Shown here: piece by piece, positions 21,599 to 56,593 of the stretch
Position numbering within the stretch: the first letter of the stretch is position 1
How the letters are laid out: each line of letters begins with the position of its first letter
Source: an uncultured Pseudomonadota bacterium
GTDB taxonomy: Bacteria; Pseudomonadota; Alphaproteobacteria; Rs-D84
Direction of reading: 5' to 3'
Length of the DNA stretch: 64,000 bases
NCBI GenBank assembly: GCA_902802115.1
Contig: CADCKW010000001.1
Location: 152,700 to 216,699 of the forward strand
Program-made: the position numbers and the translations under genes
The notes under the pieces: generated by a model
What the model was told of the DNA's origin: nothing
The model's input: only the letters and a program-made list of their open reading frames with translations
Databases searched by the model: none

Positions 21599-21818
21599 CT
21601 TCCTTGATAAACAATAACAAAAATCTATAAAAATAATATCTATCGTGGGTGGATTGGCTCGGCTATCGCCTGCGCCGCATTCGTTATCACTCAAACTTCA
21701 CTTCGTTCGTTTTCGCTTACTCATTGTCGAACCGGGCAACATTCGTTGCCTATGTTTCAATCCATGAACCACAACCACAAAATAAAAATACCCACACATT
21801 CTGTGGGTATTTTTATTT

Positions 21819-21905
21819 TGGTGGGAGTGGGTGGATTCGAACCACCTCAGTCGTAAGACAACAGATTTACAGTCTGCCCCGGCTCTCCAACTCCGGCGCA
21901 CGCCC
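21819..21905 (-). tRNA. tRNA-Tyr(GTA)
   Basis: Anticodon arm GCAGA-CTGTAAA-TCTG, long variable arm, GGTGG-TTCGAAT-CCACC, encoded CCA. C4:U69 mismatch and C8. Confidence 0.95.
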
Positions 21906-22019
21906 AAAACTTTTGCCCATTTTCGCCCTGGCGAAATATGGCTTGCCTTGTCCGCCTCCGCCAAGGCTACGGCGGGACACTCAATTTTCAAACCTCGCTA
22001 CCGCTTCGGTGAAAATTGG

Positions 22020-22094
22020 TGGTGCGGGCAGCGGGAATCGAACCCGCATTTCAAGCTTGGAAGGCTTGCATACTAGCCTTTGTACTATGCCCGC
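22020..22094 (-). tRNA. tRNA-Gly(TCC)
   Basis: GCGGGCA.../TGCCCGC-A-CCA, CAAGC-CTTCCAA-GCTTG, GCGGG-TTCGATT-CCCGC. Confidence 0.96.
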
Positions 22095-22145
22095 GAAATT
22101 CCAAAGCCCGTTCATTATACCCAAAAAATTCATATATGCAAGTTT

Positions 22146-22757
22146 TTATTTTTTTATCGGCGGGAAACATGTCACACCGTCCGCCTCACAACAATTCCAA
22201 CCCAAATCCCCCAGGTCAGTATATGTTTCGCCCGCACAACAACCATCGGCATCAGGATTTGTTCCATCATCACATAACGAAAAATCTTTTTTAACCTCCA
22301 TTGGCGGAAAACAATGTTCGTTATTTTCTGTGCAACAATTAAAACCTTGTTCGCCCAAATCTGTATATGTTTCCCCTGGACAACAACCATTTGAATCCGG
22401 TGTATCACAAGACGACACTACATCTGCTGATTTTTCTTGTGTTGCATTATCAATGCTTTCAACATCTGGGGCAACTTCTACAACTTGAACCTTTACTCGA
22501 CCTGTGGAACGACCAGACGCGCGTTTGGTGCATTTTGCGCGATAATCAGTTTTTAATTTTTCCAAACGCAAAATACCATCTTCATCAATATCTTGGACAC
22601 TATTCAAAGAATCCATTTCCGCCTTGATATCTGCACAACTCATGCGCTGACCAACACCGCGTGTCTCTTGGATTTCTTCATCATCTGCATAGGCGACCGC
22701 AATTGACACTGCTGGCACCAAAGCACAAATTGATAAAAACAATATAATTTTTCTCAT
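22146..22757 (-). CDS. Secreted protein with two tandem Cys-rich modules
   Basis: Signal peptide. GCCPGETYTDLGEQGFNCC..CFPP / GCCAGETYTDLGDLGWNCC..CFPP. Confidence 0.85.
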   Translation of the reverse strand: MRKIILFLSICALVPAVSIAVAYADDEEIQETRGVGQRMSCADIKAEMDSLNSVQDIDEDGILRLEKLKTDYRAKCTKRASGRSTGRVKVQVVEVAPDVESIDNATQEKSADVVSSCDTPDSNGCCPGETYTDLGEQGFNCCTENNEHCFPPMEVKKDFSLCDDGTNPDADGCCAGETYTDLGDLGWNCCEADGVTCFPPIKK

Positions 22758-22765
22758 AAAAAATC

Positions 22766-23503
22766 CTATTCGTTAATTATTTTCTCAACCTGCATAATAA
22801 AATCAATTGCCGGGTTTGTTATCTTTTTTGCCTTGTCAAAAATTTCTTCGGCGGCATTTTGCATTTTTAATCTTTTGTATGTTTCAACAACTTCCAAAGT
22901 TTCTTCTTGGTTTAATTTATCATCACTGATACCGCGTGCGATTTCCAGTTCTTTTTTTGCCAAATCAACATATTTTTGTGCATTTTCTGGACAGCCACGT
23001 TCAGCCATTATTGCATAGATTTTTGCGCGGTCAATGCGTTGTTCTGCGTCCATACCAACATAATTTTCACCCAATTTTCTTTCTAAATTCTGTTCTATTT
23101 GCGAACAAGGTTTTTCAATTACATTTTCAACACACATAACCGTCATAACCGCATTTACATTTTGTAAATTTTGCATGAATTTATCATGATTTTCTGGACA
23201 ACCATATGCAACCAACTTTTTATAAATTTCGAAATCGTTTCTAACACCATCACAATTTTGGTCATCGCCCCAAATTCTTTTCAATAACACCTTTTCAATA
23301 GCCTGACATGATGTCAAACTTTCTTCTATAACAGTTTGATTTGATTGCTCTATTTTTTTTGTTGCAATTTTATGATTCCAATTTGCAATACCCACGCCAA
23401 CAAACATACCACATATAAACAACACAACAAAAACAGACCAAACTTTTATTCTGGAAAAACTTGTTTTTTTATTTTGCATAAACTCTCTCCTTGATATCCA
23501 CAT
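22766..23503 (-). CDS. Membrane-anchored hypothetical protein (probable start 23479)
   Basis: N-terminal TM segment and internal repeat containing GCPEN twice. Confidence 0.8.
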   Translation of the reverse strand: MWISRREFMQNKKTSFSRIKVWSVFVVLFICGMFVGVGIANWNHKIATKKIEQSNQTVIEESLTSCQAIEKVLLKRIWGDDQNCDGVRNDFEIYKKLVAYGCPENHDKFMQNLQNVNAVMTVMCVENVIEKPCSQIEQNLERKLGENYVGMDAEQRIDRAKIYAIMAERGCPENAQKYVDLAKKELEIARGISDDKLNQEETLEVVETYKRLKMQNAAEEIFDKAKKITNPAIDFIMQVEKIINE

Positions 23504-54293: not shown

Positions 54294-55200
54294 TTAATTT
54301 TTCCTCTAACCAGTTAAAGAACATTTTATCAATCTTGGTATCTAATCTTGCAAACTTGATTTCATCACGCACATTTTGTGGCAACCTTACCCAGTCTTTT
54401 TCAGTTGTCACCAACTTTGCATTTTTTTTATCTGCCAAATTTAATAAATCTTTGATATCTTGTTCTGTATATTGATAATGGTCAGCATAAGATTTTTTAT
54501 AAACAACATTTTTTAATTGTTGAAAGAATTTTTCAGGATATCCAATTCCCGCAAACGCAACCAATTTTTCATCTTCATCATATGGCGATAAGGTTGTATT
54601 TTCTGCATAAAATACCGGGATATTTGCCGGCAATTTTAAATCAGGTAATTTTATATTTTTTTTATTTGCACGCACAATAATAATTGCATCAGCCCGCATT
54701 AACCCAGACCGCCCTTCGCGCATAGGACCCGCAGGCAACAAAAAACCATTACCAAAACCCAAAGCCTCGTCAATAACAACCACAGAAATATCTTTATTTA
54801 TTGACAGGTTTTGAAATCCATCGTCCATAACAATTGGTGTATTTGATTTTTGTTTATTTAATAAAACAATATTACTTTTTCTGTCGCCTGTATGAACATT
54901 TAAACCATATCGCGCCAACATCAAAGCCTCGTCACCAACACCATTTGTCTTGTTTGATTTTTTATAACCACGCATAACAACGGGCGCATCTAAAAATTCA
55001 GCAATTTGACGAACAATCGGTGTTTTACCAACACCACCCGCCAAAATATTACCAACACAAATAATTTTACGACGCGATATATATGGATTTTTTGCGCGAT
55101 GCCGCATTATTAATTTATTAGCCAACCAATACAGCCCCGACATTGGCAACAAAGCCAACGCAAGTGCAGATTTATGCAAAAACCAATAAGGTGTTTTCAT
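54280..55200 (-). CDS. lpxK: Tetraacyldisaccharide 4'-kinase
   Basis: CVGNILAGGVGKTP, RGY, GDEALML, MDDGFQN, LPAGPMRE, AFAGIGYPEKFF, TTEKD. Confidence 0.96.
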   Translation of the reverse strand: MKTPYWFLHKSALALALLPMSGLYWLANKLIMRHRAKNPYISRRKIICVGNILAGGVGKTPIVRQIAEFLDAPVVMRGYKKSNKTNGVGDEALMLARYGLNVHTGDRKSNIVLLNKQKSNTPIVMDDGFQNLSINKDISVVVIDEALGFGNGFLLPAGPMREGRSGLMRADAIIIVRANKKNIKLPDLKLPANIPVFYAENTTLSPYDEDEKLVAFAGIGYPEKFFQQLKNVVYKKSYADHYQYTEQDIKDLLNLADKKNAKLVTTEKDWVRLPQNVRDEIKFARLDTKIDKMFFNWLEEKLNGNF

Positions 55201-55994
55201 TATTTTTTTCTCAATTTTTCTTTTTCTAATTTTTTCGCCTCGCGCAATTTGCGTTTAAAATCAGTCGCTGTCAAACCTTCTTCAACATGCATCAAGTTAA
55301 AAATCTTGTCCAAATCACGCATTTGTTTTACACAAATTCTTTCAATTTTTTCGCGTTCTTTTTCAAAAGCCTCGGTTTTAATTTTTGATTTCACAAAAAT
55401 AGGCTCACCCACATCAACAATGGTTTTTGCAAACGGCAAAGTCACCAAATATCTGTCCCAACGGGTTTGAAACCATGATTTAGACGAAGAAAAACAAACC
55501 GGAATAATTGGCACATTTGCCATTTTTGCAAAATACATTGCCCCGTCTTGCAATTTCAAAGACGGACCACTGGGGCCATCTGGACACATAACAATACAAC
55601 GACCCTCGTTATGCAAAACACGCACACCTTCGCGCAGAACAGACACCGCACCGGACGAAGTACTGCCGTATATGGCGGTTGCACCAAACAGCCGTTGAAT
55701 CTTTGCCATCAACCTGCCGTCTTTATGGCGACTGGCAACGGCACAAGACCGCATGCGGTACAATAACATAATCACACTGGGCACCATTGTTCGCCCATGC
55801 CACACCACAAATACAGCCGGTTTTTTACGATATTCGCGCAAAATGCGTTTATTACGCACATGATTACAACATGTAATATAAATCAAAAACACAACAAAAA
55901 CGGCAAACCCTGCAACAAACCATTGCACAGGCGCCGAACTAACAATAGGTTCAATAACATATTTTTTAAACTTTGACATATATTTTTTCACCAT
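55200..55994 (-). CDS. DUF374 lysophospholipid acyltransferase family protein
   Basis: VWHGR, SRHKDGRL, GSTS.G, PDGPSGP, WDRYLVTLPF. Confidence 0.88.
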   Translation of the reverse strand: MVKKYMSKFKKYVIEPIVSSAPVQWFVAGFAVFVVFLIYITCCNHVRNKRILREYRKKPAVFVVWHGRTMVPSVIMLLYRMRSCAVASRHKDGRLMAKIQRLFGATAIYGSTSSGAVSVLREGVRVLHNEGRCIVMCPDGPSGPSLKLQDGAMYFAKMANVPIIPVCFSSSKSWFQTRWDRYLVTLPFAKTIVDVGEPIFVKSKIKTEAFEKEREKIERICVKQMRDLDKIFNLMHVEEGLTATDFKRKLREAKKLEKEKLRKK

Positions 55995-56111
55995 TAAAAA
56001 TTCACAGGAATCTTAGCAATAATAAAAATACAATGCAAGGGACAAAAGCCCTAAAAAACACTAACAAACGGTTTTAAGTGAAATTTTTTAAAAAAAACAT
56101 AGTGTTTTTTA

Positions 56112-56139
56112 TTGACATTTAATAAATTTAGTATATAAT
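56112..56139 (+). promoter_or_regulatory. Consensus sigma70 promoter for tRNA-fMet
   Basis: TTGACA - 16 bp - TATAAT. Confidence 0.85.
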
Positions 56140-56153
56140 AGACATTACGTTAT

Positions 56154-56230
56154 CGCGGGATAGAGCAGTCCGGTAGCTCGTCAGGCTCATAACCTGAAGG
56201 TCGTTGGTTCAAATCCATCTCCCGCAACCA
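56154..56230 (+). tRNA. Initiator tRNA-fMet(CAT)
   Basis: C1:A72 mismatch, TCAGG-CTCATAA-CCTGA, encoded CCA. Confidence 0.96.
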
Positions 56231-56593
56231 ATTTAAATAAAAAGGCACCACAAATGGTGCCTTTTTATTTAAACTTGTATTGTTGGTGATTTGAACCAAC
56301 GAGGAAAGTTGGTTCAACCGCAGGCGAAAGGCGAACGAAAGTGCGCCGGTGAGCAAAGCGAATGAGCCAAGGTGGCGAAGCAAATCCATCTCTACATATA
56401 AATATATAACTACAAATTTGCGCGCAGACACTATGTGTCGAGCGAAAGAATTCCATCGGCACTTTATGCCTGCTGGGCATTCGTTAGCACTCAAACTTCG
56501 TTATCACTCGTTTTTGCTTACTCATAGTCCATCTCCCACCATATTTTGCAATAAAACCAAAAAAGTGGCGTTTTATCGCCACTTTTGAACTCA

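Follow-up and report, generated by a model that had tools for sequence, protein, structure and literature searches.

Genes for tRNA are classic landing sites of large mobile elements; integrases that target them leave, as their classical footprint, a directly repeated tRNA 3' end that begins in the T-loop. The RtT repeat of the Escherichia coli tyrT operon, found directly behind a tRNA gene, is annotated as a small RNA. The ssrA islands of Dehalococcoides are bordered by direct repeats of about 20 nt (PMC3146451), and the tRNA cluster of the T4 and T6 phages includes SegB, a free-standing GIY-YIG homing endonuclease, the C-terminally truncated form of which was inactive in a growth assay (PMC2330249, PMC13096335); SegB preferentially cleaves the sequence RAWTSGAAC, which is the antisense of the T-loop sequence, and drives a recombination-dependent tandem amplification of a tRNA segment (PMC13096335). 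A literature search for structured repeats flanked by tRNA tails found no earlier description beyond RtT, cis-mobilizable elements (CIMEs) and SegB.

The window analysed here, i.e., the whole 64,000-nt stretch of contig CADCKW010000001.1 (assembly GCA_902802115.1), contains two copies of a short module, one behind tRNA-Tyr(GUA) and one behind an initiator-like tRNA-Met. The module is part of non-coding units that form a well-supported, tRNA-flank-specific family of structured cassettes with turnover; the units share a recurring anatomy, a near-exclusive association with tRNA genes and a conserved fold, differ in occupancy from species to species, and occur nested, inverted and stacked in tandem. 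We lean towards reading them as mobile RtT-like cassettes of the tRNA flank, that is, selfish DNA that would be copied at the T-loop and the tails. A genus-wide census, a fold backed by covariation, footprints of other tRNAs inside the units and a point-by-point match to RtT are the new elements of this analysis.

Anatomy, distribution and turnover of the units

Read in the sense of the tRNA, the order of elements is the CCA end of the gene, a hairpin terminator, a segment (S1) resembling the antisense of the tRNA T-arm and tail, often with a small conserved hairpin next to it, the 5' half of a T-arm (GGTTCGA or a local variant, e.g., GGTTCAA or GGTCCGA), a structured core of about 70-100 nt and a tRNA tail that begins within the T-loop (AATCC... 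to CCA), commonly with another terminator after it; whole units are 150-200 nt long. Since a T-arm half precedes the core and a tail from the T-loop follows it, the core occupies the T-loop position of a partial tRNA copy. Three core families were told apart. The N/M family has about 11 copies in this genome, plus two variants that are not at tRNAs, and its M and N subtypes are linked by a variant behind tRNA-Ser(CGA); the X family, with seven copies in this genome, has a CCGCAG motif immediately after the T-arm half; the Z family consists of a long AT-rich inverted repeat with antisense and sense tails directly on its flanks. The units of all three families contain no open reading frame (ORF), and at least three families of protein-less, highly structured cores (N/M, X and Z) are present in tRNA 3' flanks.

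The initial annotation had described the 52-nt module as shared by two tRNA loci, with conserved arms and a variable centre, and both statements agree with the present data for the window; the pattern itself goes well beyond two loci. In the window, exact matches to each arm are limited to two sites on the plus strand, 21677-21728 and 56477-56529, and 100 dinucleotide shuffles gave no match even with three mismatches allowed; in a self-BLAST of the window the copies align over 62 nt at 82% identity (E = 7e-9). The centre, which does differ between the copies, is the tip of hairpin P1. The module corresponds only to the P0/P1 hairpin, of the M subtype, within an N/M core of about 90 nt (21644-21732 and 56441-56533). 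The sense strand of the core is the minus strand at both loci, so that the tRNA-Tyr copy runs in the same direction as its minus-strand host gene and the tRNA-Met copy runs opposite to its plus-strand one. An Rfam scan indicated no family over either module locus, at gathering score or at permissive thresholds, the latter returning terminator-like noise only. Of the proposal that the module represents an undescribed tRNA-targeting mini-element family, the small non-coding family tied to tRNA 3' ends was upheld; "undescribed" was not, E. coli RtT having an equal layout.

The copies are not scattered at random sites, which had been named as the outcome that would speak against a link with tRNA 3' ends: in this genome (950 kb, seven contigs, 43 tRNA genes), nine of ten strong N/M copies and seven of seven X-type copies are at tRNA tails, one of the latter having a tail but no adjoining tRNA gene. 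A copy of the gene's own 3' end (at least 10 nt, within 1.5 kb) is located downstream of 12 of the 43 tRNA genes and upstream of none. All tail copies of at least 15 nt in the genome are in sense orientation and at most 550 nt from their own tRNA, except for one tRNA-Ser(UGA) orphan on contig 1.

Of 101 genomes of the genus searched with model R1, 93 contain an N/M core, at 1-22 copies per genome and about 580 in total; in a further search, 77 of 81 genomes of the genus, three of 10 genomes of the family's other genera and one of 29 genomes of the order's other families were matched, and the class, sampled at one genome per genus, gave a single weak match. Thirty loci sampled from 29 other genomes contain 38 copies, of which 30 follow a tRNA gene at a distance of 70-330 nt, without exception in the orientation of the gene; the remaining eight have tRNA tails present or lie at contig ends. 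At least 13 tRNA species have an N/M copy behind them in the sampled loci. Model R2 (X-type) also matches two distant alphaproteobacterial families, where the matched loci show perfect 19-nt tails and a 178-nt tandem period behind tRNA-Gly and tRNA-Ser. The 3' sites of tRNA genes are colonised by protein-less cassettes of 150-200 nt, abundant throughout a genus of tiny genomes in which non-coding DNA is scarce. In genome G173, of another alphaproteobacterial family, two identical units of 178 nt with the X/RtT layout stand behind tRNA-Gly(GCC); both have a perfect 19-nt tail and a terminator of their own, and the period is that of E. coli RtT. An insert of another kind, 96 nt long, is found on contig 3 of the window's own genome, G000 (52880-52997), where it follows tRNA-Gly(CCC) with no terminator and precedes an 18-nt tail copy.

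Comparison of species indicates turnover of the units. Behind tRNA-Tyr, six species have nothing but a terminator, and other species have M, N, Z or X units. In genome G018, tRNA-Gln(CUG) is immediately followed by a GIY-YIG gene; in G000, an extra 171-nt N unit and a 20-nt tail duplicate stand between this tRNA and a GIY-YIG gene that is 98% identical. At the tRNA-Arg(ACG) locus, the antisense segment matches the tail of tRNA-Lys(UUU) at 21 of 25 positions, and that of the tRNA-Pro(UGG) locus matches tRNA-Gln(UUG); some antisense tails therefore derive from a tRNA other than the present host, which indicates that units have moved between tRNA genes. Near-identical cores also stand behind different tRNAs, the core of the second tRNA-Tyr unit of the window (A2, below) and that behind tRNA-Gln(CUG) on another contig being 91.5% identical over 71 nt, and behind tRNA-Ser(CGA) an M core is nested within the loop of a Z module. 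Decay is greater in the distal tails, which fits insertion beside the working gene.

Locus A of the window is built on the minus-strand gene of tRNA-Tyr(GUA) (21819-21905; ARAGORN and the Rfam tRNA model). The hairpin terminator directly 3' of the gene (21780-21818; palindrome 21769-21830) is unlike the ancestral terminator of relatives, and hence came in with unit A1. The left part of A1 (21733-21779, minus strand) consists of S1, the small conserved hairpin H and the T-arm 5' half GGTTCGA; its S1 is closer to the tails of tRNA-Gln(UUG) and of initiator-like tRNA-Met than to the tRNA-Tyr tail. The A1 core (21644-21732, minus strand; M subtype, 69.2 bits with R1, supported by covariation) contains, in this order, the module (helix P0/P1 and apical loop), a CCGCAG junction and a small P2/P3 hairpin, and is abutted by an 11-nt copy of the tRNA-Tyr tail from the T-loop (AATCC...; 21645-21655, minus strand). 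It is joined to the AT-rich right half of a Z module with the 7-nt direct tail repeat CACCCAC on its flanks (21599-21644, minus strand); full Z units are found behind tRNA-Tyr in six relatives. A second tRNA-Tyr tail copy, complete through CCA (21583-21598, minus strand), and a second terminator (21548-21582) follow, the latter matching the one located directly after tRNA-Tyr in relatives and thus the ancestral one. The array ends with an N unit, A2, composed of a left part with S1, hairpin and T-arm 5' half (21499-21547, minus strand) and a core of the N subtype (21410-21498, minus strand; R1, 87.1 bits) that terminates in a decayed tail copy (21412-21421); the whole of A2 is predicted to fold as a four-way junction. 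The spacer between tRNA-Tyr and tRNA-Gly (21906-22019) contains a GC-rich hairpin repeat, recurring in this and related genomes, which is also found within the leader of the GIY-YIG gene behind tRNA-Gln.

Locus B, on the plus strand, starts with a consensus promoter (56112-56139), the initiator-like tRNA-Met gene (56154-56230) and a strong terminator (56232-56273), together spanning 56112-56273. These are followed by an X-type unit (56271-56404, plus strand; R2, 100.1 bits) with an antisense T-arm, a T-arm 5' half, an X core with CCGCAG and a partial tail (56381-56392); this unit was aligned with E. coli RtT. The inverted M core (56441-56533, minus strand; R1, 65.2 bits), which contains the module 56477-56529, is followed on its own strand by a decayed tail resembling tRNA-Pro(UGG) (56435-56452). 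The junction at 56529 with a tRNA-Met 3' end and a terminator, as first reported, is confirmed by a displaced 14-nt piece of the tRNA-Met tail end (56528-56541, plus strand), in which 3 nt are deleted, and by the bidirectional terminator at the end of the array (56561-56586). An 8-nt piece of the tRNA-Met tail, TCCATCTC, recurs at 56385-56392, across the inverted M insert. Between the two loci, a diverged related unit found by self-match (40142-40352, minus strand) is located behind a second tRNA-Met gene (40353-40429), with a 63-nt duplicate of tail and terminator (40142-40204 versus 40309-40371, 96.8% identity). Elsewhere in the window, positions 7856-10897 and 9440-12509 are 71% identical over 3.1 kb and represent tandem paralogues, probably of a gene family.

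Core fold and the functional RNA alternative

The fold was assessed with 61 cores from 50 loci aligned to model R1. The core is a long irregular hairpin (P0/P1) and a short helix, P2, around a variable P3 hairpin; 89.5% of the paired cells are observed as pairs, versus 73% in column shuffles and about 33% with slid partners, and double-sided changes are present in 15 of 19 pairs (201 cells). One pair is C:G in 47 cores and A:U in 12, with zero mismatches, and another is A:U in 29, G:C in 28, C:G in two and U:A in one. Such a strongly conserved, covarying fold would suit the reading of the units as functional tRNA-linked RNAs similar to E. coli rtT RNA, which we consider unlikely. According to this reading, a read-through transcript would be processed, the antisense segment would pair with the tail and form an acceptor/T-stem-like minihelix ending in CCA, and the product might serve as a regulator or decoy of factors binding tRNA ends. 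The annotation of RtT, a repeat of equal layout, as a small RNA speaks for it, and so do the whole N and X units, which fold much better than their shuffles (z = -4.8 for A2 and z = -3.5 for the X-type unit of locus B) with the antisense segment closing on the tail; both M units of the initial annotation lack such an excess (z of about -1.3). Antisense segments also pair better with their own tails than with those of other units (-14.3 versus -12.7 kcal/mol, p = 0.003), although many of them mismatch the local tail. The functional RNA reading is further weakened by the strong intrinsic terminators between tRNA and units, by a search for promoter-like sites at the units, which found none, and by the biology of the units themselves: sister species differ in occupancy of one and the same tRNA, and inverted, nested and truncated units occur. 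Finally, G:U pairs are rare and no commoner than A:C (17 versus 24 of about 1030 cells), with no strand bias, so the helices do not carry the signature of selection on one RNA strand.

Two other structural readings were tried. A hammerhead ribozyme composed of the pair of antisense T-loop and T-arm (GAUGAG, stem, CGAA) was rejected because the position after GA is mostly C and belongs to the covarying pair with 47 C:G and 12 A:U, so that the motif lacks its invariant A. For the CCGCAG/GA junction and the hairpin flanks, a kink-turn and a sarcin-ricin motif were considered, and by eye neither gave a consistent fit.

Candidate enzymes and the origin of the tail copies

If the units are selfish DNA, they may be copied by break-induced repair or recombination guided by homology or microhomology, with the conserved quasi-palindromic T-loop sequence and the repeated tails as copying sites; each event would lay a fresh tail and terminator beside the working tRNA, and older units would be shifted outward and then decay. 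A plausible source of the breaks would be a predicted 81-aa GIY-YIG nuclease found in the same niche, by analogy with phage SegB. Break-induced, homology-guided copying at T-loop and tails, possibly started by this nuclease, is put forward tentatively.

The 81-aa protein, which has no name in NCBIfam, comprises the GIY-YIG catalytic domain only; its gene is present in 28 of 61 genomes of the genus and starts 91-270 nt after a tRNA gene of the same strand at 24 of 30 loci. Nine of these loci were read, and in eight of them a structured leader starts right after CCA and no terminator separates the tRNA from the gene; the G017 locus has a terminator-like hairpin within the leader. In the tRNA-Gln clade, the GIY-YIG gene is followed by GAGG and a tail fragment from the same T-loop position as in the units. 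Synteny gave no exact insertion boundary for the GIY-YIG cassette. A second small GIY-YIG type (about 103 aa) is encoded away from tRNAs, on contig 4 (108372-108683) and contig 1 (310695-311012), and each of the two genes lies between directly repeated GC-rich hairpin elements about 100 nt long.

Several observations weigh against selfish copying of this kind. The GIY-YIG protein lacks a DNA-binding part and amounts to the catalytic domain alone, the tail junction is seen among GIY-YIG cassettes only in the tRNA-Gln clade, and the subtype is limited to the 28 of 61 genomes mentioned above; genomes devoid of the gene still carry units, on average 4.8 copies versus 7.0 in genomes with it. The lengths of the duplicated targets (7-10, 19-20 and 63 nt) vary and fit no single simple mechanism, and the unit-content comparisons, which are between species, caught no insertion event in progress. 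Two M-like cores lie away from tRNAs (contig 5, 65734-65826; contig 4, near 105.9 kb), and a role at the RNA level is conceivable in view of the strong fold, which includes GNRA-like loops, and of the stable E. coli RtT RNA.

The core on contig 5 (65734-65826, minus strand; R1, 61.7 bits) has its own 10-bp closing stem instead of a T-arm and is located about 150 nt after a 374-aa ORF; the copy on contig 4 is similar. In the same region of contig 5, a 319-aa reverse transcriptase, the only one in the genome (63146-64105, minus strand), adjoins rho, with a small ORF, GC-rich repeats and the 374-aa ORF upstream; this arrangement looks like a diversity-generating retroelement. Retro-mobility of the units was considered and set aside.

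The duplicated tails could also be debris of attachment sites, i.e., of elements inserted at tRNA 3' ends by tyrosine or serine integrases, accreted and then eroded in the manner of CIMEs, and direct tail repeats are indeed the classical integrase footprint; we regard this origin as improbable. The initial annotation had proposed an integration system with a recombinase encoded elsewhere, a suggestion that finds no support in the genome, which has only two tyrosine recombinases, both Xer-like. The genome also encodes a large serine recombinase, accompanied by a DUF2924 partner, and genes of its family are convergent with tRNA-Ser or tRNA-Tyr at 10 of 30 loci, which counts in favour of debris; the family is, however, found in 30 of 101 genomes of the genus and the units in 93 of 101. 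A 179-nt copy of the tail and flank of tRNA-Ser(UGA), 12 kb from a serine recombinase gene, also favours debris; two serine recombinase islands beside tRNA-Tyr, in two genomes, showed no second tail copy, for which reason this recombinase was rejected as the source of the tail duplicates and does not explain the units. Moreover, one integrase would not serve at least 13 tRNA species, the varying length of the duplicated targets fits neither one recombinase nor one transposase, and recurring conserved 90-nt cores are not expected from remnants of different islands. In the genome studied, the serine recombinase paralogues are located at contig ends (contig 1, 3-1731; contig 7, 25400-26990; 83% nucleotide identity), and one of them has the DUF2924 partner; the contig 7 copy is downstream of tRNA-Ser(UGA), at a distance of 1.1 kb, with an Abi_C-domain gene between. 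The 179-nt copy (84% identity), which includes tail, terminator and flank, is located on contig 1 (12691-12868), adjoining an orphan X unit. Transposition of the IS200/IS605 type, by single-strand intermediates, and DDE transposition were rejected as well, since a search of the genome for Y1_Tnp, rve and DDE_Tnp_1 transposases found none.

Equally improbable is an origin without a dedicated enzyme, in which the units would result from template switching during replication and from unequal crossing-over, both at the quasi-palindromic T-arm of strongly transcribed tRNA genes, and gene conversion would spread the cores. This would account for variable duplication lengths, inverted tail copies, tandem arrays with whole-unit periods (e.g., the 178-nt repeats of another alphaproteobacterial family) and loci whose tails and terminators are often copies of each other, but leaves unexplained why conserved covarying cores should recur in most species of the genus and, on separate contigs, behind tRNAs that are not related to each other.

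Comparison with RtT, SegB and other known systems

The selfish cassettes proposed here resemble large tRNA-site integrative elements and CIMEs in the direct repeats of the tRNA or tmRNA 3' end, such as the 20-nt direct tail duplicate flanking the N unit missing from G018, and in tandem accretion. They differ from them in being cargo-free, only 150-200 nt long and devoid of a matching integrase, and in having a structured core in a split T-arm together with an antisense tail. Like repetitive extragenic palindromes and bacterial interspersed mosaic elements (REP/BIME), miniature inverted-repeat transposable elements (MITEs) and palindromic elements of the RPE type, they are high-copy, protein-less, hairpin-forming, intergenic repeats with mosaic modules; unlike these, they are confined to the strict niche of the tRNA 3' end and have flanks copied from the host tRNA. 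They also lack a fixed target-site duplication, and the genome contains neither a Y1/RAYT nor a DDE transposase; the inverted tails, unlike the terminal inverted repeats of a MITE, are host-derived and imperfect, with duplications of 7-10, 19-20 or 63 nt.

SegB and the GIY-YIG gene of this genus both adjoin tRNA genes, and the SegB cleavage motif coincides with the position where the units join; this match to the T-loop preference of SegB yields a concrete enzyme hypothesis. SegB has parts beyond the catalytic domain, whereas the predicted nuclease is an 81-aa catalytic domain alone, and most units are gene-less: the GIY-YIG cassettes themselves fit a SegB-like cassette in niche and patchiness, and units of the N/M, X and Z families are devoid of ORFs and also occur where the gene is absent from the genome.

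RtT (rttR, RF00391) is a close counterpart. RtT repeats are arranged in tandem directly 3' of a tRNA gene, and each ends in the last 19 nt of that tRNA, from the T-loop on; within one unit, the order of antisense tail, GGTTCGA, core and tail is the same as in the units described here. Reading of the tyrT/tyrV region of E. coli K-12 revealed, in each RtT unit, an antisense tail with an altered T-loop, GGATGAGAA, followed by GGTTCGA, a core with the motif CCGCAGGC and a 19-nt tail; the same altered antisense T-loop is present in the Arg X units and in 13 of the 60 N/M units. When model R2, derived exclusively from X units, was run against RtT, three of the repeats aligned to it over the full length, in register and on the correct strand, with weak scores of 10-16 bits. 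RF00391 gave no match in the window at gathering score, none at E <= 10 in either locus and none at E <= 1 in nine other unit loci; E. coli controls scored 133-137 bits, four times. Judged by sequence, the units are built, and appear to work, like RtT, but, as RF00391 did not match them, they are not members of the Rfam RtT family. They also differ from RtT in that each has its own intrinsic terminator, many tRNA species are occupied, several core families exist, and units are sometimes inverted or nested; RtT, in addition, is a processed RNA, and the units are known here as sequences.

To go by the layout of their sequences, the units and the E. coli RtT repeats probably belong to one broad class. 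The anatomical match supplies comparative context and a testable origin for a poorly understood repeat, and in practice such arrays matter, since they break assemblies, leave pseudo-tRNA fragments and confuse the annotation of attachment sites and tRNAs. It is conceivable, though rather doubtful, that RtT, these units and the alphaproteobacterial look-alikes constitute one widespread, unrecognised class of mobile cassettes that, once a nuclease has made a break, would home in on the T-loop position, restore the tRNA from the tail that they carry and leave stacked pseudo-tails behind; RtT would then be a fossil or domesticated member of the class, and an oddity of the tyrT operon, known for 40 years, would be accounted for.

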